IMG/VR virus record: IMGVR_UViG_3300008259_000247
Location: 1-38,745 of that record
DNA length: 38,745 nt
Source of the DNA: a virus
Taxonomy: Duplodnaviria; Caudoviricetes
Direction: 5' to 3' (one strand)
Of the stretch, positions 1-38,745 are shown in pieces. A program made the position numbers and the translations under genes. The notes beneath the pieces were generated by a model. The model made no database searches, was not told the origin of the DNA, and worked only from the letters and a program-made list of their open reading frames with translations. The first letter of the stretch is position 1. Each line of letters opens with the position of its first letter.

Positions 1-40
1 ACGGTGGAGAATGATGTTAGGCTCATAAAAAAGGAATAAC

Positions 41-445
41 ATGAAGTCAATAATTTTAAACCTACTTAAACAAGGATACGATTTCTTTGCCGTGGCATTG
101 ACAACTGGCTTTATATTTTCCTTCTTTTTCCCGATTAAACATTTCCTTCTATTCACCATCGCAGTTGTAATAGCGGACACAATCACGGGAATCAAGGCAG
201 CAAGGAAAGAAGGCAAGGCGATAACAAGCAAAGGGCTATACAGGACAACGGAGAAGATAGTGGTATATTTTACATCTATCCTTATCTTTCACGGTGCGCA
301 GCTTACCTTTGCAATCCCAGTACCAATCGTTTACCTTGTAAGCTCGGTCATCGCTGGAACAGAGTTGTTCAGCGTGGCGGAGAATGTTAAGCGGATAACG
401 GGAGTAAATCTTGGCACGGTAATAGTTAGATTTTTTAGACGTTAA
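41..445 (+). CDS. Phage holin (phage holin family 4 / TcdE-like)
   Basis: 134 aa with 2-3 hydrophobic helices; D-x-I-T-G...K...ITSKG and E-x-x-S-x-x-E-N motifs typical of this family; lies upstream of an amidase. Confidence 0.85.
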   Translation: MKSIILNLLKQGYDFFAVALTTGFIFSFFFPIKHFLLFTIAVVIADTITGIKAARKEGKAITSKGLYRTTEKIVVYFTSILIFHGAQLTFAIPVPIVYLVSSVIAGTELFSVAENVKRITGVNLGTVIVRFFRR

Positions 446-457
446 AAACAAATAATC

Positions 458-751
458 ATGCAGACTAATTTAAAAGAAGCATTGAAAAATGCAGATGGGA
501 TAAAGTCACCAATGGGTGACATCGCTTGTTATTCAATGAACTTTGCCGAGTTAGCATCGGAAATCAATGTTCATTTGGAAGGAAACAAGGTAAAATTTAC
601 TTGGAGGGAATATATCCAGTTGGCTCAAATCATTTGGAATAAAATTAAAGAGACAAGCCGTGAATGTTCTGGAAAAGAAATTTCGGTGACTTTACCCCCA
701 AAATTATCAATCGTAGGGGCTGCTTTCGCGCTCATAGGGTTTAAGTTATAG
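458..751 (+). CDS. Hypothetical protein in lysis module, hydrophobic C-terminus
   Basis: 97-aa ORF between holin and endolysin; A-rich start region. Confidence 0.7.
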   Translation: MQTNLKEALKNADGIKSPMGDIACYSMNFAELASEINVHLEGNKVKFTWREYIQLAQIIWNKIKETSRECSGKEISVTLPPKLSIVGAAFALIGFKL

Positions 752-785
752 GCGCAGCAGAGTAACGCTACCTTATGCGACTGTC

Positions 786-813
786 AGGGCGATGCATTGA
801 TTTGCGTCGCCCT
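786..813 (+). promoter_or_regulatory. Strong stem-loop just upstream of the endolysin start
   Basis: agggcgatgca-ttgatt-tgcgtcgccct, 11-bp stem with one G-U pair and no U-tract on +. Confidence 0.45.
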
Positions 814-828
814 TAAAAATATAAAAAT

Positions 829-1491
829 ATGAAAGCAAATAAATTTTGTGTTTTCCTTGACGCGGGACATGGCGGCGTTGACCCGAAGGTAAAATTGCCA
901 AATGGTTACACAACTTACCCTTCAAAATGTTCTCAGCATAACAACGGGGTTTTCCATTCCTACGGCTGGTTCTTTGAGGGCGTGTTCAATCGTGCCGTTA
1001 CCGAGTTAATTGGGCAGTATCTCAATGACTGGGGCTTTTCAACTATGAAAGTTTACGACCCTGTTACCGATGTATCCCTTGGCAAAAGGGTTGCAAAAGC
1101 TAACTTTGCGGCAAAGACCTTTGAGGCTTCGTTGTACCTAAGCATTCACGGAAACGCGGCGGCAAGCAAAGAAGCACGGGGTTGGGAAGTCTTTACCTCA
1201 GTCGGGCAAACACGGTCGGACATTTACGCTGAGTTTCTTTTCAAAGAGGTCAAAGAGGCTTTTCCGAAATGGATATTCAGAAGCGACTTATTAGACGGCG
1301 ACCATGACAAAGAGGAAAGGTTTTACGTTTTAACCCAAACGGATATGCCAGCGGTTTTATCGGAAAACGGTTTCTTTACAAATTACCACGACGCACGCAT
1401 GATGTTTGACCCGACGTTTCAAAATACCTTAGCTTTGTCTCATGCTCGGGCGGTGGTTGATTACGCAAAGACGCAAGGGGTGATATTTTAA
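829..1491 (+). CDS. Endolysin, N-acetylmuramoyl-L-alanine amidase (Amidase_3)
   Basis: LDAGHGG, FEGVFN, SIHGNA and PAVLSENGFFTN zinc-amidase motifs. Confidence 0.93.
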   Translation: MKANKFCVFLDAGHGGVDPKVKLPNGYTTYPSKCSQHNNGVFHSYGWFFEGVFNRAVTELIGQYLNDWGFSTMKVYDPVTDVSLGKRVAKANFAAKTFEASLYLSIHGNAAASKEARGWEVFTSVGQTRSDIYAEFLFKEVKEAFPKWIFRSDLLDGDHDKEERFYVLTQTDMPAVLSENGFFTNYHDARMMFDPTFQNTLALSHARAVVDYAKTQGVIF

Positions 1492-3311: not shown

Positions 3312-4157
3312 TTAAAAAACATTTGTTTCTTTTTTCAAAGGGAAGTTGTCCCGTTTGATTTGCCAGTACTCAGCCATGAGCGATGCACGAAATTTGTAAT
3401 CTTTGTCCGTGTGATAACCTGACTTGTAAATGCATTTACAAATGGATTCGTACAACTTAATCCCCTTTATCTTGTAATTAGCCTTTTTGCAATCGGCGTA
3501 TCTTCCTGAGTTCAAAACGCCAGCCCAAAGTTTCATGCCTTCTTCCGTGCTGGATGCCTTCATGAACTTTGCCTTAATGTACTTATCCCTTCCTCGAATT
3601 ACCTCGCGTGTCCTGTATGTAACAGATTTGCCGTTCTTTAATGCCTTTACCCCGCCAGCGTTGGCGTGTTTGCGCCAGAGTTCCGTTTCGATTCCTTGAG
3701 CAGTTGCTTCTATTATAAAGAAAGAATAAATCATTGAAATCGGGAAGTCGGTTAATAGGTGTACATTCATCAACATGGATTCGTAGCAATAGGCAATATA
3801 TATTCGACGCAACTTTGCCCTATCAACCTTTGCAAGGTTACGAAAGCCGCGTCCTTCCAGCGTTTGCCTTAGTTGGTTGCCTGATAACTTGCGCACCTCG
3901 TACCCGTAGGAACGTGACCCGTAGGCGCTTTCGTCAATCTCTTTATCCTCAGCCTTAGCGGGAAAGGTCAACGTCGTAATTTTATGAACGTACACCGTGT
4001 CATGCTCAATGATTGGCACGAATGAGGTATAATTGTACTGGGTATTAATCGGGGAATAAATCAACCCGATGACAAAGGCAATGCCGATTCCAGCGGCTAC
4101 CTGATACGGCAGCCGCTTATTTTGTGGAACGTAGGTTTCAATGATTGGTTCTTTCAT
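3312..4157 (-). CDS. Membrane-anchored GH73 (FlgJ/glucosaminidase-like) peptidoglycan hydrolase
   Basis: N-terminal TM helix; FIIEAT catalytic Glu; NAGGVKA; T-R-E...K-A-K-F hairpin; GYHTD (YxTD) motif. Confidence 0.75.
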   Translation of the reverse strand: MKEPIIETYVPQNKRLPYQVAAGIGIAFVIGLIYSPINTQYNYTSFVPIIEHDTVYVHKITTLTFPAKAEDKEIDESAYGSRSYGYEVRKLSGNQLRQTLEGRGFRNLAKVDRAKLRRIYIAYCYESMLMNVHLLTDFPISMIYSFFIIEATAQGIETELWRKHANAGGVKALKNGKSVTYRTREVIRGRDKYIKAKFMKASSTEEGMKLWAGVLNSGRYADCKKANYKIKGIKLYESICKCIYKSGYHTDKDYKFRASLMAEYWQIKRDNFPLKKETNVF

Positions 4158-22605: not shown

Positions 22606-23738
22606 GTTAGGTTCAGCAGCAAGTCGACGTTTACGTTGGTGGCACTTTAGCGGGGTCATTCTTAGCCGCACAAACGGGCACGTCTGGGAGTAGCGCCGTG
22701 TTTGATACCAATGTTCAATCGTTCCTTTACTCAGACGTTGCACCCGTCACGGGGTCAAAAACAAGCATCTTTGGAACGCTTGATACTTATTCCTTTACAA
22801 CCAATACAGATGTTTTAAAATCAATTTACGCGGTGGCAAAGAATCAAACGGTTTCAACCGCTGGTTTTCTTATCACCGCAACGGCGGGACAATATAGCGC
22901 CACGGCTTACGTTATCCCGTCACAATTTTACGGGGACGATAACGACTTTAATCTAAGCGACTTTTATCAACCCTCAGCAAGTCCCTTTAGATTCCTTACC
23001 ACCAACAACCAAGACAGGCGATGCAACACAGACGGAAATATATTTCTATCCTTTGTCGGTAAAGGGGTGAACGCTGGGAGAATTGTATTCACGGACAACG
23101 GGGGAACGACGGCTGAAAGTATCATTGACTTTGTAAACACAACCGCCAACAACGATATGTATTCCATTTCTGTTGGAGCGGCAAATGTTTTTGGAAGTAC
23201 CGCCGTGTTTCACGTTGGCAACTTTCCCACATCGCCCACGGCTTACAATTATTATTCCGTTTCCGTTGGTTATTACGACGGGACATATACCGCACGGTCT
23301 GAGGTCATTGACATTAACCTTGAGCCAACTTGTAACGATGACGTTGAATTGCATTGGTTCGGGAAATATGGCGGGGCTGAAAGTTACCAGTTTAGAGGAT
23401 TGATTCAAGACCTACAAAACTCCAATGCGGATATTATAAACATATCGCAGCCGTGGAACGTGGCAACCACACCACGGGCAAATAGTTATGATAAAACGAT
23501 TATTAAGACCAATCAAAGAGTAAATAAGCGAAAGCAAATTAAATGCAACATACCGCACGAGGACGCCGTTTACGTTGCCTCTTTGTTTTATTCCCCTGAG
23601 GTGTACATAATCGAGGGCGGGAAATATGTAAACGTAACCATTTCTAATGCTGAGATATTGACAGACGATAACAGGGCAACGGATATCGAAGTTAACTTTG
23701 AAATTACTTACCCTAATAAACCAACCGCCCAGTTATGA
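22602..23738 (+). CDS. Virion structural protein (distal tail-like); amber codon at codon 3 or later start at 22698
   Basis: Beta-rich; C-terminal W.GKYGG.ESY.F and LFYSPEVY motifs; ATG-AGT-TAG followed by an open frame. Confidence 0.6.
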
Positions 23739-26158
23739 TAAAATTATTCATAGGCGGGCAAGAAGTTGATTTAAACCAAGACGAGGTTAACGTGACTATT
23801 GATTATTCAATTGAAAACCTTGACCTTGGAAATATATCGGGTGCGCACTCAAAGCGAAACGTCACCCTTCCAGCAACGAAAACAAATATAAGCATATTTC
23901 AAAATATAACCGATGCTGGGGCGATTGTTACCAGCGCTTATAAGTTACTATCGGCAAGGCTTGAAGCCGACGGCGTGCCAATACTTACGGGAAAAGCACG
24001 GCTTGAGGGTGCAGATTTACAGGCGATAAACTCAGGGTTCTTGGCATCAAGTTTCAAGGTCTCATTGATTGGAAACAACGCTGATTGGTTCGCGGACGTT
24101 GGCAATATATTAGTCAGGGATTTAGGGTGGGACGATATTGAAATAAACACGGCAAATGTAAAAACCAATTACGACCCGTTGACGTCTGAACATTGCTATA
24201 TCTTGATGAAGTGGAAGGCGTGGGCAAACGAAACCTATATTGTTAATAATGAAATGACCCCAGCCATTTTTATTTGGCAGATATTGGAAAAGGCTTTTTC
24301 AAACAAAGGCTATCAACTTAATAGCATTTTTAAGACTGACCCGTTTAACCGTTTAATTATTCCAATGGGGTTGGAACTTGGCGCAGATTATCTTAAAGAT
24401 TTTGTAAACCTCAGGGCGTCAATACCAAGTCCTGGATTATTTAGTGCTTTTGAGCCATCCCCAGTTCTTATAACATTTACGGACGAAACGACGTCGCCTA
24501 ACTTTGACACGGGAGGCAACTACTCAAGCGGCGTTTATACCGTGCCAATTACGGCAACCTACACCTTAAAGGCTGAATTAAATATTTTAATTACCTTTTA
24601 TACTCCTACGCCAACATCTGAATTATTAGTAGGCTGGGAAATAAACGGGATATTTGAGGAAGGGGAAGACCTATCACAAGAGGCAGATTTTGACGATTCA
24701 GTAAGCATTGAATTTTTAACGGATTTAGTTGAGGGTGATTTGGTTCGATTTGTTGTTATACACAATAACGCTGCGTTTAATATGAATCTAAACGGTTCAA
24801 TAGATATCATTGGAAGCAAAGCGGTATTTGAAACAGGCAGAACATTTGACTTACAATACGTCATTCCTATTTCATGGTACGTCCGTGACGTGATTGCCGA
24901 CCTTACTACGGTGTTTAATCTTGCATGGGAAACTAACGTACAAAGTAAGCAAGTTTACGCGTACCCGAAAGACGATTATACGATAAGGTACAGGGCAGAT
25001 GCTACGGGAGCAATTAGCCTCACAACCTTTGAGGGGTTTTTCAAAGGCTCAGATAAATATGACTTAAACACCCGTGACCTTGATGGCTCAGAATTTCAAA
25101 TCTTAGACGGATATAAAAGTAGTCAGGTATTGGCATACGCCACGGACGACGACACGACGAACAAAGAGGAAGCAAGGCGCGGGGTAAACATTTATTCGGG
25201 CGGCTACAATTTCCCCTCGGATAGATTTGACAACGGTGTTGAATTTATATATACAAAATTCTTTGCCAAAACCATACATATAAGCGACGTTGATATAACC
25301 AGCGGCGGTATTTACGGGGCGCAGATGCCTCTTCTCTTTGGCGATGATTACAACACGGTTACCGATGCTGAACCCAATTACAACTTAGCACCTCGTTTGC
25401 TTTATTACGCGGGAAGACGCAGCGGTTTAGATGGTTACATTCGTTTATACGACGAGGCAAGTTCAGCCGCCTCAGCATTTGATTTTCCAGCGGCTTTCAT
25501 GGTTAATTACAATGACCCAAGCGGCGGGGATTTTAACCTTTCTTTTTCCGACGAGGTTACCAATTATACTAATGTAATGCAAGGGATTTTTAAGACTTTT
25601 CACTTGCAGACTTACAAGCGCATTGAACTTGGCAAGGTATATACCACGTTTGCCAAAGTAAAGCCAAAGGATATAACCCAGCTTTCATTTAGACGCAAGG
25701 GAATCATTGGTTCGTCGAATTTTATAATACAAAGTATTGAATACAACCCAAAGTCAAATAGTCCAGCCAAAACGGTTTTGCTTTACGATGAAAAGCCAAA
25801 TGTAAATGACCTTACCAAAGTTTCAAATACAATTACCTTGGCTGGTTCAACGCCTCAATCGGGAACGGTCACAGGGTCGGGCAGCGGCTTAGTAGGGGCA
25901 AACGGGGCAACGGTGAATATTCAGTTGTCTTATACGCCGTTCATTAACTCAATGACAAATGTTTTAATTTTATCGCCTAACTCAGGAATCACTCAGGTGA
26001 GCAACACAAATGCAAATGTACTTGTATTCCAGAATGGTCAAAAGTTGATACCAACCATTCAATATATAATAAGCGGCTCAACCGTTGGAATCAATGTAAA
26101 CACTCATTACGATGGGGCAAATTATGAAGTAGTTGTTAACGGCGTAACAAAAGGATAA
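23735..26158 (+). CDS. Tail tip/baseplate structural protein
   Basis: 807 aa; LFIGGQEVDL...SKRNVTLPAT..N..IF N-terminus typical of Bacteroidota phage tail proteins; precedes the tape measure gene. Confidence 0.7.
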   Translation: MIKLFIGGQEVDLNQDEVNVTIDYSIENLDLGNISGAHSKRNVTLPATKTNISIFQNITDAGAIVTSAYKLLSARLEADGVPILTGKARLEGADLQAINSGFLASSFKVSLIGNNADWFADVGNILVRDLGWDDIEINTANVKTNYDPLTSEHCYILMKWKAWANETYIVNNEMTPAIFIWQILEKAFSNKGYQLNSIFKTDPFNRLIIPMGLELGADYLKDFVNLRASIPSPGLFSAFEPSPVLITFTDETTSPNFDTGGNYSSGVYTVPITATYTLKAELNILITFYTPTPTSELLVGWEINGIFEEGEDLSQEADFDDSVSIEFLTDLVEGDLVRFVVIHNNAAFNMNLNGSIDIIGSKAVFETGRTFDLQYVIPISWYVRDVIADLTTVFNLAWETNVQSKQVYAYPKDDYTIRYRADATGAISLTTFEGFFKGSDKYDLNTRDLDGSEFQILDGYKSSQVLAYATDDDTTNKEEARRGVNIYSGGYNFPSDRFDNGVEFIYTKFFAKTIHISDVDITSGGIYGAQMPLLFGDDYNTVTDAEPNYNLAPRLLYYAGRRSGLDGYIRLYDEASSAASAFDFPAAFMVNYNDPSGGDFNLSFSDEVTNYTNVMQGIFKTFHLQTYKRIELGKVYTTFAKVKPKDITQLSFRRKGIIGSSNFIIQSIEYNPKSNSPAKTVLLYDEKPNVNDLTKVSNTITLAGSTPQSGTVTGSGSGLVGANGATVNIQLSYTPFINSMTNVLILSPNSGITQVSNTNANVLVFQNGQKLIPTIQYIISGSTVGINVNTHYDGANYEVVVNGVTKG

Positions 26159-35259: not shown

Positions 35260-35773
35260 AGTAATAGCTGGCGGCGTGGCACGACCAACCCCAGCGGATA
35301 TAAGAATTGATAAATCACTTATTAGCCCTCACATTCAAGATGCGGAGTACCGTTGGATTGTTCCCGCTATTGGCGTATCGTTTTATGATACATTGGTTGC
35401 AGCCAAAGGAAGTTCAACGGCTTTTAGTTCAACGGCTTACCAGCAACTTTGGGACAGTCAATTAAAATCCTTTTGCGCAAATGCCGTGCTTTACGAGGCG
35501 TCGCCTTATATCGTAATGCAGATGGGTTCAAATGGGCTTTATACCCTTGATAATGAATACGGGCAAAACGTGGGCGTTGAGGGATTGAAATTTTATCAAG
35601 ATACTTTATTGCAAAGGCTTGACGTAAAGAAGAAAAGGATTAAGGATTATTTGTGTTCATGCGCTGCGGGGTTAACGGGATTTGTTTCAACCGCTATTGG
35701 TTGCCCTGATTCAACTTGCGATGAACATGAAGAAATAACAGACATTTACAATACTTTAGGCATTGTGCTATGA
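35234..35773 (+). CDS. Putative head-tail adaptor
   Basis: I.P.IQDAE...I.P.IG..FYD.L pattern; follows the portal gene. Confidence 0.6.
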   Translation: MSQLIQPSEVIAGGVARPTPADIRIDKSLISPHIQDAEYRWIVPAIGVSFYDTLVAAKGSSTAFSSTAYQQLWDSQLKSFCANAVLYEASPYIVMQMGSNGLYTLDNEYGQNVGVEGLKFYQDTLLQRLDVKKKRIKDYLCSCAAGLTGFVSTAIGCPDSTCDEHEEITDIYNTLGIVL

Positions 35774-38562
35774 TAGAGAAACCAAAGAAAGAAAGGCGAT
35801 TCCTAAAGGCATTGGGGCGCGTCGGTGAAATACTAATTCAGGAGGTTTTAATTAAAATAGGGAGTAATTTAATCAAGAAGATTGGAGGCAAAAAAACTTT
35901 GCCTTCAATTCTTTTTTTACTCGCTTCCCTTAGCCTCTTCGCCCAGTACCCAAACACGGGCAACAAACAAAGGCTTGGATTCCAGACCACGGGCGACGGT
36001 TTGACTTGGCGCGGGTCATTATCGGACACGGCTGCTATTCAACCAACAAACAATCAAAACGCATGGGTCATTCTTGATACCGTTAACCTTAAAATATATT
36101 CCTTTGACTTTACTTCCAACGTCTGGAACTTGGTTGGTGGCGGTGGTTCAACGATTGACACGGCATCATTAAGCAATCGGATTAATTTAAAGCTAAATAT
36201 TTCAGATACTGCGGCAATGCTTTTGCCTTACGCAAAAAAAAGCTATGTCGATACGGCTGGTAGATTTTACGCACGTCAAGACTTTTCCAACGTTTCAACC
36301 TCAACCTTAACTTGGACGCAAACCGACACCTTAGTTCCAGCGGGTGTAAATGTGGTTCAAGTTTACCGCAACGGACAAATTCTTTTGCCTTCTCAATACA
36401 CTATTCCAACATCAACCAGCGTGGTTATTGGGACAACCTCTTTTAAAGTAGGGGAAAATTATACAGTTATATTTCCTAAAGGCGGTGGCGGTTCTGGTGG
36501 CGGTTCGGGTTCATTAACCTCAATCTCGGGCGGCACGGGAATAACGGTATCACCCGACCCAATTACAACCACGGGAACGGTATCGGCTGACCTTTCTGTT
36601 TTAATGGAATTATCGGACACGGCTTCATTGTCAAATAGAATTAATACTAAATTAAATATCTCGGATACCTTATCAATGCTTTCGCCTTATTTCCGTGACG
36701 CTGATACCTCGTCTTTAAATCTTACCTCAAGGTTTGCATTAAAATTAAACGCAGCGGACACGGCATCATTATCCAATAGGATAAACGCAAAGGGCACGGG
36801 CACGGTTACAAGTGTTGCCACGGGTTACGGGTTAAGCGGCGGAACGATTACCTCAACGGGCACTTTGGTTCTTGATTCAGCGGTTGTATTTTCTCGGATA
36901 CGGGATTCGATTGTTGACGTTGCTATCGGGAATGATACCATCAAGATTTTAAAACAGGAATACGCACCAGCCACAACCAGCGTATTAACGTGGACAATAA
37001 CGCCAAAATTCCCTATTCAATTAAAGGTATATATTTTAGTTTTTAGAAATGGGCAGTTACTTATCAATGACCAATACAATTTAACCGACACAAATAAAAT
37101 TACTATTGTTTCCAATTCCTTTAAGGTCGGGGCTAATTACACGGTGGTCACGGTGTCAGGTATTGGTTCGGTCGGTTCGGCTCAAGGGAATCCCGTTTAC
37201 CCTGAGGCTGGGATTGCAATAAGCACGGGGACAACGTGGACAACGTCTATTCCCAATAATTCAGCAAATTGGAATATTGCCTTTAATGATAAAATAACAA
37301 ACGCAGCCTTCTCAGGGACAAATACAAAAACCTTGACTTTGACGCAGTACGACGGTGGTACATTTGCGCCAACGTTTACCGATTTGCAAGGCGTCACTGG
37401 TTCGGGAACAATAGATTATATTCCAAAATTTAGCACAACGACCGAGGTAACCAATTCCGTGATTCAAGAAAGCAGCGGTAACATTGGTATAGGAACAACA
37501 CCTACATCAAATTTAGAATTAGCAAGAGGTAAATTTATTACTTTAAATAGTAGAGAATCAGGCTTTCCAGAAGATTCATCAGGAATAATGATATATGAAA
37601 CAGGAACTAAAACTGCTACGGACATAAATTTTGGTGCAAAAATTATGTACAATTCAGTATCTGATAATTTTGAAATAAAAATGAAAAATAATAATGGTAC
37701 AACATTATTTAACCCGCCAGTATCAATTTCGATACCTCGAGGAACTGGCGTAGTTAATATAGGAACATCTTTAGCGGTCACGGGCAACATTACCGAAGGC
37801 GGCAACAATGTCTTAACCAACCTTGACACGGCATCATTATCAAGTAGGATTGACCTTAAATTAAATAAAACCGATACTGCATCTTTATCAACGAGAATTG
37901 ACTTAAAATTAAATAAAACGGATACTGCATCTTTATCAAATCGTATTAATGGTAAAGTATCGTTAACAGGAGATGAATATATTAATGGTCAAAAAACTTT
38001 TGGCGGTTTAATTATACCATCAAACGGAATGCAATTAACTGCAACTGGTAGCAACTCAAATAAACTAATTGGAATTAATGCAAGTAGCTTTGTTGGTGAG
38101 GTAACACTTGGCACGGGATTAACACTTACAAGCAATGTTTTAAACGCAACCGAAAGATATTATTTTGATTTAGGTATTGTTGCTGGAGCTGCTGACAATT
38201 CGGCTTCAACTTATGATTTTACCTATGGTTCAAACATATTTATAGTTCCAACAAGTTTAAATGGTTATTGTATTGATAGTGTTTATATTCGTGCTATTGG
38301 TTGTTCGACTTGTCCGCCAGTTTCACCTGACCTTGATTATTATGTAGGTGTTTATAAAGCCAATGCTGGTTCAAGAGTTGCCACATCTGGTGCAACTTTA
38401 GTAGGTTCACAGATAACAATGAATGAGTACGATTTAAATGAAGTCAATAGAAATGATACATTATCAACTGGTGAGGCATGGTGGGTATATTTAAACGGAA
38501 CTTATACGTCGGATTTAGCCTATGTTACGGCTGGATTTATTGTCAAAAAAACTTGTAATTAA
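35770..38562 (+). CDS. Large fibre-like protein with Sec signal peptide and DTASLSxRI repeats
   Basis: KKTLPSILFLLASLSLFA|QYP; GTVTSV, IPKF and GNIGIGTT fibre motifs; coiled repeats. Confidence 0.7.
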   Translation: MIEKPKKERRFLKALGRVGEILIQEVLIKIGSNLIKKIGGKKTLPSILFLLASLSLFAQYPNTGNKQRLGFQTTGDGLTWRGSLSDTAAIQPTNNQNAWVILDTVNLKIYSFDFTSNVWNLVGGGGSTIDTASLSNRINLKLNISDTAAMLLPYAKKSYVDTAGRFYARQDFSNVSTSTLTWTQTDTLVPAGVNVVQVYRNGQILLPSQYTIPTSTSVVIGTTSFKVGENYTVIFPKGGGGSGGGSGSLTSISGGTGITVSPDPITTTGTVSADLSVLMELSDTASLSNRINTKLNISDTLSMLSPYFRDADTSSLNLTSRFALKLNAADTASLSNRINAKGTGTVTSVATGYGLSGGTITSTGTLVLDSAVVFSRIRDSIVDVAIGNDTIKILKQEYAPATTSVLTWTITPKFPIQLKVYILVFRNGQLLINDQYNLTDTNKITIVSNSFKVGANYTVVTVSGIGSVGSAQGNPVYPEAGIAISTGTTWTTSIPNNSANWNIAFNDKITNAAFSGTNTKTLTLTQYDGGTFAPTFTDLQGVTGSGTIDYIPKFSTTTEVTNSVIQESSGNIGIGTTPTSNLELARGKFITLNSRESGFPEDSSGIMIYETGTKTATDINFGAKIMYNSVSDNFEIKMKNNNGTTLFNPPVSISIPRGTGVVNIGTSLAVTGNITEGGNNVLTNLDTASLSSRIDLKLNKTDTASLSTRIDLKLNKTDTASLSNRINGKVSLTGDEYINGQKTFGGLIIPSNGMQLTATGSNSNKLIGINASSFVGEVTLGTGLTLTSNVLNATERYYFDLGIVAGAADNSASTYDFTYGSNIFIVPTSLNGYCIDSVYIRAIGCSTCPPVSPDLDYYVGVYKANAGSRVATSGATLVGSQITMNEYDLNEVNRNDTLSTGEAWWVYLNGTYTSDLAYVTAGFIVKKTCN
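37825..37950 (+). repeat. 48-bp tandem repeat (about 2.6 copies) encoding DTASLSxRIDLKLNKT
   Basis: Units start at 37825, 37873 and 37921; related units occur near 36157, 36616 and 36757. Confidence 0.85.
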
Positions 38563-38574
38563 AAAAACATAAAC

Positions 38575-38745
38575 ATGAAACAACTCCTTTTCCTCCTCCT
38601 TTTCCCTTGCCTTGCCATGGCACAGTACCCTGGCAACGGTAACCAAAAGATAACATTGGGCGAACAAACTAGTGCCGACGGGCTGGTGTATCGAGGCGTG
38701 GCATCTATTGACACAGTCACGGCAACAAGTAAAATCACACGGGCA
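38575..38745 (+). CDS. Second exported fibre-like protein (partial, runs off the window)
   Basis: MKQLLFLLLFPCLAMA|QYPGNGNQKITLGEQTSADGLVYRG, paralogous to the N-terminus of the upstream protein. Confidence 0.7.
   Translation, partial: MKQLLFLLLFPCLAMAQYPGNGNQKITLGEQTSADGLVYRGVASIDTVTATSKITRA

Follow-up and report, generated by a model that had tools for sequence, protein, structure and literature searches.

A tail-fibre-like cassette predicted to be exported and O-glycosylated in probable Bacteroidota phages

Tailed-phage particles are regarded as being built wholly in the cytoplasm. Sugar-decorated tailed-phage particles are represented by the glycosylated virions of mycobacteriophages, in which phage-encoded glycosyltransferases are said to modify the capsid or tail tube in the cytoplasm; the TSP1–4 proteins of phage CBA120 are reportedly cytoplasmic as well. 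TSP4 of CBA120 is described as a primary fibre with small β-sandwich XD domains at which further spikes dock (PMC8825819). Fibres that carry a signal peptide are described from Bdellovibrio, where the MAT fibres combine a conserved N-domain with a mosaic trimeric body and variable tips and include both S74 and non-S74 members (PMC10769870). The general O-glycosylation system of Bacteroidota acts on D-(S/T)-(L/I/V/T/A/S) in non-cytoplasmic proteins (PMC12871550). Here we describe F1, a 930-aa fibre-like protein encoded at 35770..38562 of a 38,745-nt window (IMG/VR virus record IMGVR_UViG_3300008259_000247, positions 1 to 38,745), together with two companion genes, F2 and F3. We put at roughly 0.56 the probability that F1 is exported via Sec, O-glycosylated on its stalk and docked to a cytoplasm-built tail at lysis. 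Coordinates written with two dots refer to the + strand.

The leader, sequons and domains of F1

The F1 signal peptide was judged from hydrophobicity, motif and conservation. Hydrophobicity along F1 is highest at residues 47–57, which are followed by LFA|Q at 58/59, giving a 58-aa leader of the Sec/signal peptidase I (SPI) type (35770..35943) with a predicted cut before Gln59; Gln at +1 is the rule for Bacteroidota SPI substrates. The initial annotation had recognized the hydrophobic core and the LFA|Q ending, and both stand, but the leader is not a plain short one: a cationic amphipathic extension of 42 aa precedes the core. Across 32 loci this extension is under purifying selection (270 synonymous versus 143 non-synonymous codon differences) and contains no conserved internal start codon. 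The full leader is present in 114 of 120 F1 homologues, the other six being fragments or later start calls. All 114 leaders have a hydrophobic core; 100 place A/G and then Gln at the cut, and 14 have Ser at +1. The mature N-terminus differs in 14 of the 114 homologues, where it adds a new sequon. The earlier proposal that the fibre passes through the periplasm is well supported by a leader that is both widespread and selected, and F1 is very probably exported via Sec/SPI. The extension (35770–35895) is conserved in siphophage F1 proteins, whereas the crAss-like F1 lacks it. Possible roles are a delay of export or an action on membranes, and it may resemble phage membrane-disrupting peptides.

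Among the 44 Asp residues of F1, 17 lie in D-(S/T)-(A/I/L/V) triplets, the number first counted by eye. Shuffled sequences contain 4.4 on average, and none of 2000 reaches 17. Nine of the 17 fall in one repeat; the excess persists when a single stalk block is kept (11 versus 3.4 expected; 1 of 20000 shuffles), when all stalk repeats are removed (8 versus 3.1; 167 of 20000) and when a hairpin site is removed as well (7 versus 3.0; 498 of 20000). The leaderless 807-aa tail protein contains two such triplets in 56 Asp residues, as had been estimated, and this is below the 3.5 expected; no other open reading frame (ORF) of the window longer than 200 aa rises above chance. The 120 best F1 homologues average 17.3 sequons against 5.2 expected. 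The enrichment asserted in the initial annotation consequently holds against shuffles with the repeats collapsed, against the neighbouring ORFs and among homologues. Family-level ratios for short genes (holin, 6.7-fold; DUF6712, 2.6-fold) were left unused because one or two conserved sites are counted many times in them.

A more distant set consisted of the best 150 of 898 relatives (E up to 0.001) of F1 residues 59–342. A hydrophobic leader is present in 119 of these, and on inspection the other 31 proved to be fragments, mis-called starts or borderline leaders. In the 119, Asp is enriched 3.67-fold at the sequon position, compared with 0.53-fold for Glu, 0.78-fold for Asn and 0.85-fold for Gln, a count that the repeats dominate. 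The +2 residue is A/T/S/I/V/L at 2474 of 2763 D-S/T sites (89.5%), in agreement with Bacteroidota glycoproteomes, for which a review gives Asp before Ser/Thr followed by L/I/V/T/A/S at about 90% of sites, in non-cytoplasmic proteins only (PMC12871550). Substitutions in the sequon columns of F1 remain among the allowed residues. F3 has an unrelated predicted fold and subfamilies of only 14–25% identity, and a sequon Asp is the sole invariant residue among 20 of its sequences. In two cultured relatives, TCUEAP1 and BS-TP3, the fibres encoded at the corresponding position have no leader, and their sequon counts show no excess (4 versus 5.2, 3 versus 3.3 and 4 versus 2.4). Selection for the Bacteroidota sequon in F1 is well supported by these patterns, and it is quite probable that F1 is O-glycosylated by the host system.

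Sequons are not spread evenly along the fibre. In 41 proteins they account for 37–53% of Asp residues in the first half of F1 and for 5–21% in the second. The glycan cloak that had been suggested fits poorly with sites that crowd the proximal half and thin toward the tip, and with the cultured exported structural proteins discussed below, which lack an excess. As the base is crowded and the tip nearly bare, we favour a stalk that the glycans would stiffen and protect, with few on the tips.

The mature protein begins with an N-module (residues 59–125; 35944..36144) that is homologous to the mature start of F2. Its Atlas lead is PF26696 PTL_trimer (41% of the top cluster, score 0.87), and it is likely an anchor and trimerization module. 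The N-module is followed by stalk repeat block 1 (36145..36258; sequons 130, 146 and 161), which is helical in the structure model, and by a first XD-like docking domain (residues 164–238; 36259..36483). Block 2 (36607..36798; sequons 283, 299 and 330, with DTS at 312) precedes a second XD-like domain (residues 391–466; 36940..37167), both domains being assigned by fold alignment of the models. Block 3 (37816..37959; sequons 686, 702 and 718) contains a 48-bp (16-aa) tandem repeat at 37831–37939, whose unit carries DTA as originally reported. Four fibre-like proteins of apparently bacterial, exported type (P0311, P0266, P0387 and P0319) carry very long arrays of the D-T stalk repeat, with 62 sequons in P0311, and are candidate host glyco-fibres.

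F1 ends in a C-terminal head (38140..38559) with Cys834, Cys845, Cys848 and Cys929, one of four interchangeable head types. This head is present in 23 of 120 F1 homologues, and the mature part is free of Cys in 60 of 120, ruling out the cysteines as a family trait. Distant versions retain just the first and last Cys, and that pair is likely disulfide-bonded; the earlier suggestion of periplasmic disulfides is therefore retained for this head type and given up for the family. Single-sample contigs carry alternative segments at 37400–38563, with differing sequences joined just upstream of F2, a pattern consistent with head swapping inside populations; all 30 bins of the region 35400–38745 are covered by contigs from four runs. 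The F1 of the window matches no Pfam, PHROG or NCBIfam family, and a comparison of its head with the sequences of solved structures gave nothing significant, but the F1 of a close homologous locus (L007) matches tail-fibre PHROGs. In its gene slot, mosaic body and swappable tip F1 shows the traits of a tail-fibre gene. The F1-like family comprises 1484 clusters and the F3-like family 815.

XD-like domains and the F1–F2–F3 cassette

The two internal XD-like domains of F1 are copies of a 75-aa domain, and a third copy forms the last 82 residues (25910–26155) of the leaderless 807-aa tail protein (23735..26158). In a group of HK97-like phages a copy ends a leaderless 123-aa protein encoded immediately 5′ of F1. 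Models of the domain are confident, with predicted local distance difference test (pLDDT) values mostly of 70–92. They align best with the neck of DT57C (Z 7.4, root-mean-square deviation (rmsd) 2.8 over 70 residues) and the tail complexes of Carin-1 and LME-1 (Z 7.1, rmsd 2.3–2.4); CBA120 TSP4-N gives Z 8.0, but with an rmsd of 20.6. For the internal domains of F1, the best matches are phage fibre-attachment and neck chains (Z 7.1–7.4, rmsd 2.3–2.8, 65–70 residues). A profile of the domain found nothing significant among the sequences of solved structures. The XD-like end of the 807-aa protein is a candidate docking site on the virion.

Whether F1 has an XD-like domain is strictly paired with the presence of F2. 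Of 82 loci, 55 have a closed F1 and a next gene, and 13 of these were dropped as duplicates. F2 is present at all 28 distinct loci whose F1 contains the domain and at none of the 14 whose F1 does not, a result that was rechecked without filters and with which five further loci agree. The paired state switches 4–5 times on three trees, and 2–4 of the switches are forced by strong branches. The heads sit in the stretch that separates the XD-like domain from F2, and in 11 of 14 cases they occur in both classes, so that simple linkage is not a full explanation; mere physical linkage was considered and is weakened on this ground. Since the XD domains of TSP4 bind other spikes (PMC8825819), F2 was predicted only where F1 bears such a domain, and the pairing suggests a branched fibre. 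Of the 14 distinct loci whose F1 lacks XD-like domains, 12 have an F1 with a different domain, about 135 aa long (for example L047:10001–12478), and some F1 proteins have both. The ~135-aa domain presumably resembles capsid-decoration folds.

F1, F2 and F3 all combine a signal peptide and Gln at +1 with sequons, and together occupy the tail-fibre slot upstream of the holin, which holds the only fibre-like genes found. F2, F3 and crAss-like F1 have short leaders of the textbook type. F2 starts at 38575 with a 16-aa signal peptide and is truncated by the contig end (38575..38745); the last 12 codons of F3, a protein of about 200 aa in relatives, lie at 1..39, directly upstream of the holin, a 97-aa protein and the amidase (41..1491). 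Among 41 loci that reach the holin (duplicates included), F3 lies upstream of it in 39, and F2 is not always present. F2, which has its N-module in common with F1, ends in a Peptidase_S74 chaperone in six of nine tested cases and in 17 of 28 in a further count, and its relatives match tail-fibre PHROGs. From the S74 chaperone of F2 and the PTL_trimer lead we infer that F1 would be a homotrimer. A fold search with F3 returned no clear match (best Z 7.5, to small β-barrels).

Closely similar F2 and F3 genes follow F1-type genes both in the HK97-like siphophage group and in a crAss-like phage, L087. In the latter, the segment 10001–18921 contains the N-module, F2 and two F3-like genes, as in the siphophages, and the cassette thus crosses tail morphotypes.

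Proposed assembly at lysis and rival explanations

A plausible course of assembly can be drawn from these features. F1, F2 and F3 would be made late and sent through Sec into the periplasm, where host signal peptidase would cleave them, the fibres would trimerize and heads of the present type would form disulfides. The general O-glycosylation system of the host would fill the D-S/T sites of all three proteins. The N-module common to F1 and F2 would bind XD-type domains, F2 docking on the internal XD-like domains of F1 and F1 on the end of the leaderless tail protein, to give a branched receptor-binding fibre. The cytoplasmic pool of tails and the periplasmic pool of fibres would come together only once the envelope is opened by holin and amidase. 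Extended to Bacteroidota phages at large, the scheme becomes one of two-compartment assembly, in which a branched, disulfide-bonded fibre coated with host O-glycans snaps onto XD-type sockets at lysis and the cassette moves between short- and long-tailed phages; we hold this wider version tentatively, at somewhat less than even odds.

Exported proteins may reach virions in some cultured phages. The consecutive genes gp085–087 of Cellulophaga phage phi18:3 and gp091–094 of phi10:1 precede the lysis genes, those of phi10:1 lying between tail and lysis genes, and encode proteins that have a signal peptide and Gln at +1 and are annotated in GenBank as structural by tandem mass spectrometry (MS/MS). 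With this, the gene slot and the XD-like domains taken together, attachment of F1 to the virion is fairly likely. The initial annotation had left open whether the fibre joins virions at lysis or is displayed on the infected cell; the former is the better supported, neither being shown for this phage. Two of the proteins from each phage, gp093/094 of phi10:1 (L110:44100–47391) and gp086/087 of phi18:3 (L085:9545–13584), open with nearly identical leaders and N-termini and, judged by these, form another exported cassette shared by unrelated phages.

Several observations count against the proposed assembly. The seven cultured proteins have 8 sequons where about 21 are expected, show no homology to F1 and have no XD-like or N-module match; they could also have co-purified with the particles. 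Export accordingly does not require glycosylation. No such leader was seen in phi14:2 among 20 ORFs examined from half of its genome, and F1 has no homologue among cultured phages. The top fold matches of the XD-like domains (Z 6.5–8.0) lie below the safe mark, the best Foldseek E is 1.6e-3 and pilin folds reach Z of about 6; in the crAss-like phage L087 no leaderless XD protein was found within 26 kb. DT exceeds DS by about 4:1 at the sites, and glycoproteomes slightly prefer Ser; the D-T could partly be a helix cap in the stalk. Exported proteins of apparently chromosomal origin contain the stalk repeat too, and the sequons may thus be inherited. Finally, bins that hold relatives are labelled Actinomycetales, Alphaproteobacteria, Actinobacteria and Richelia, none of them Bacteroidota, and the matches in genome collections are two short contigs of one bin labelled Actinomycetales. 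These labels, attached to short contigs or in conflict with one another, are probably the result of misbinning.

A fate in which all three proteins undergo export and glycosylation but stay off the virion, serving on the infected cell or beyond it as adhesins, decoys or receptor blockers, is rather unlikely. Such a role would suit the stalk repeats of apparently chromosomal exported proteins (P0311 on a 5.1-Mb contig, P0387 on one of 3.6 Mb), the sharing of F2 and F3 by short- and long-tailed phages and the example of the Bdellovibrio MAT fibres, exported phage-like fibres that act on cell surfaces (PMC10769870). It is at odds with the tail-fibre slot and the lack of other fibre-like genes, with the XD-like domain that the leaderless tail protein has as F1 does, and with the structural annotation of signal-peptide proteins in two cultured phages; the absence of an integrase from the 39 ORFs scanned also speaks against it. 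F1 has no MAT N-domain: neither F1 nor F2 matches NF053851 (Bdello_MAT_N), which rules out membership of that family, and P0266 stays below threshold (26.7 bits, cut-off 60).

Export and docking after lysis could instead be real and the glycan incidental, with the D-T motif structural or inherited from host fibre genes. The cultured exported proteins without a sequon excess, the repeat shared with bacterial proteins that holds nine of the 17 sites and the preference for DT all lean this way, but we consider it unlikely: the excess survives outside the F1 repeats and in the unrelated F3, the altered mature N-termini add a new sequon, and none of the 31 leaderless matches among the distant relatives is a convincing leaderless fibre. 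Highly improbable is a purely cytoplasmic fibre, translated from a start inside the leader or bearing the leader as an untranslocated membrane tether. The n-region of F1 is unusually long, and in the window a TTG at residue 44 is preceded by a GGAGG motif; yet TTG occupies that codon at only 15 of 32 loci, which, with the selection on the extension, rules out that internal start. The textbook leaders of F2, F3 and crAss-like F1 contradict this reading too, and the conserved cysteine pair and the selection for sequons make sense only outside the cytoplasm.

Genomic setting and relation to known systems

Family scans of its ORFs identify the window as a single contig of a long-tailed phage. The gene order runs from holin and amidase through a replication block, terminase, tail genes, tape measure, ClpP-type protease, capsid, portal and DUF6712 to F1. 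Comparison with relatives shows that the contig opens with the final codons of F3 and stops within F2; a circular genome is probable, of which the contig would lack about 2 kb (most of F2–F3). DNA of the window occurs in 20 runs from 14 studies of lake and freshwater, and no RNA holder was listed in the run search. Three of 41 starts have a Shine–Dalgarno motif ahead of them (background 6.4%), and positions −12/−11 are mostly A, which we take to be the Bacteroidota pattern. The nearest cultured matches of the terminase are Riemerella phages (44%), the capsid protein matches only one Bacteroides and one Elizabethkingia phage, both of like gene order, and the top plasmid match of the amidase is from Chondrinema (Bacteroidota). 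On these indirect signs the host is likely a member of the Bacteroidota, and the phage probably a Bacteroidota siphophage.

Other genes of the window touch on envelopes and sugars. No obvious lipoprotein spanin pair lies near the holin and amidase (41–1825), between which the conserved 97-aa protein has a hydrophobic C-terminus. A FlgJ-like muramidase (3312–4157, − strand) carries a membrane anchor at its N-terminus, with a DTV sequon after it, and is probably a second periplasmic glycoprotein. A sugar-modifying cluster of this small phage spans 11102–15981 (MUCI70-like glycosyltransferase, DegT aminotransferase, methyltransferase and GT4-like enzyme) and could serve host glycan remodelling or capsid or DNA modification. 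An ADP-ribosyltransferase-like protein (PF03496; 17996–18643) is encoded immediately 5′ of the terminase genes.

In the open-licence literature on phage fibres, export or glycosylation and XD domains, we found no paper on exported tail fibres, and passages of four reports (PMC12014285, PMC8143477, PMC3338817 and PMC11946311) contain nothing on them. The components are of known kinds (branched XD fibres, exported MAT fibres and Bacteroidota O-glycosylation), and their combination in a tailed phage is likely new. This locus adds the all-or-none pairing of a docking domain with a second fibre, and the example of phi10:1. If the proposed assembly is correct, the periplasmic route would give phages access to the disulfide and glycosylation machinery of the host and would turn lysis into a step of assembly. 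The host-recognition apparatus would be coated with sugars that come from the host and are not inherited; each virion would bear the species-specific glycan of the cell in which it was made, and adsorption or host range could be shaped in this way without a change in the genome. Exported phage fibres would also offer a handle on the function of Bacteroidota O-glycans, described as largely unknown (PMC12871550).

Set beside the systems introduced above, the cassette is closest in its docking domains to CBA120: the F1 domains align with TSP4-N and other attachment chains, and their presence tracks a second fibre. It differs in the signal peptides and sequons of F1 and F2, and the fold match is weak, with no sequence-level match to solved structures. 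The MAT fibres are chromosomal cell-surface adhesins of a predator, whereas F1 and F2 belong to phage late operons and have sequon-rich stalks. The exported proteins of phi18:3 and phi10:1 resemble the cassette in gene position, leader and structural annotation, but without detectable F1 homology, docking modules or sequon excess. In mycobacteriophages the modifying enzymes are those of the phage, whereas here a periplasmic system of the host would modify exported fibres. As substrates of that system the review discusses host proteins (PMC12871550); those predicted here are parts of a phage virion.

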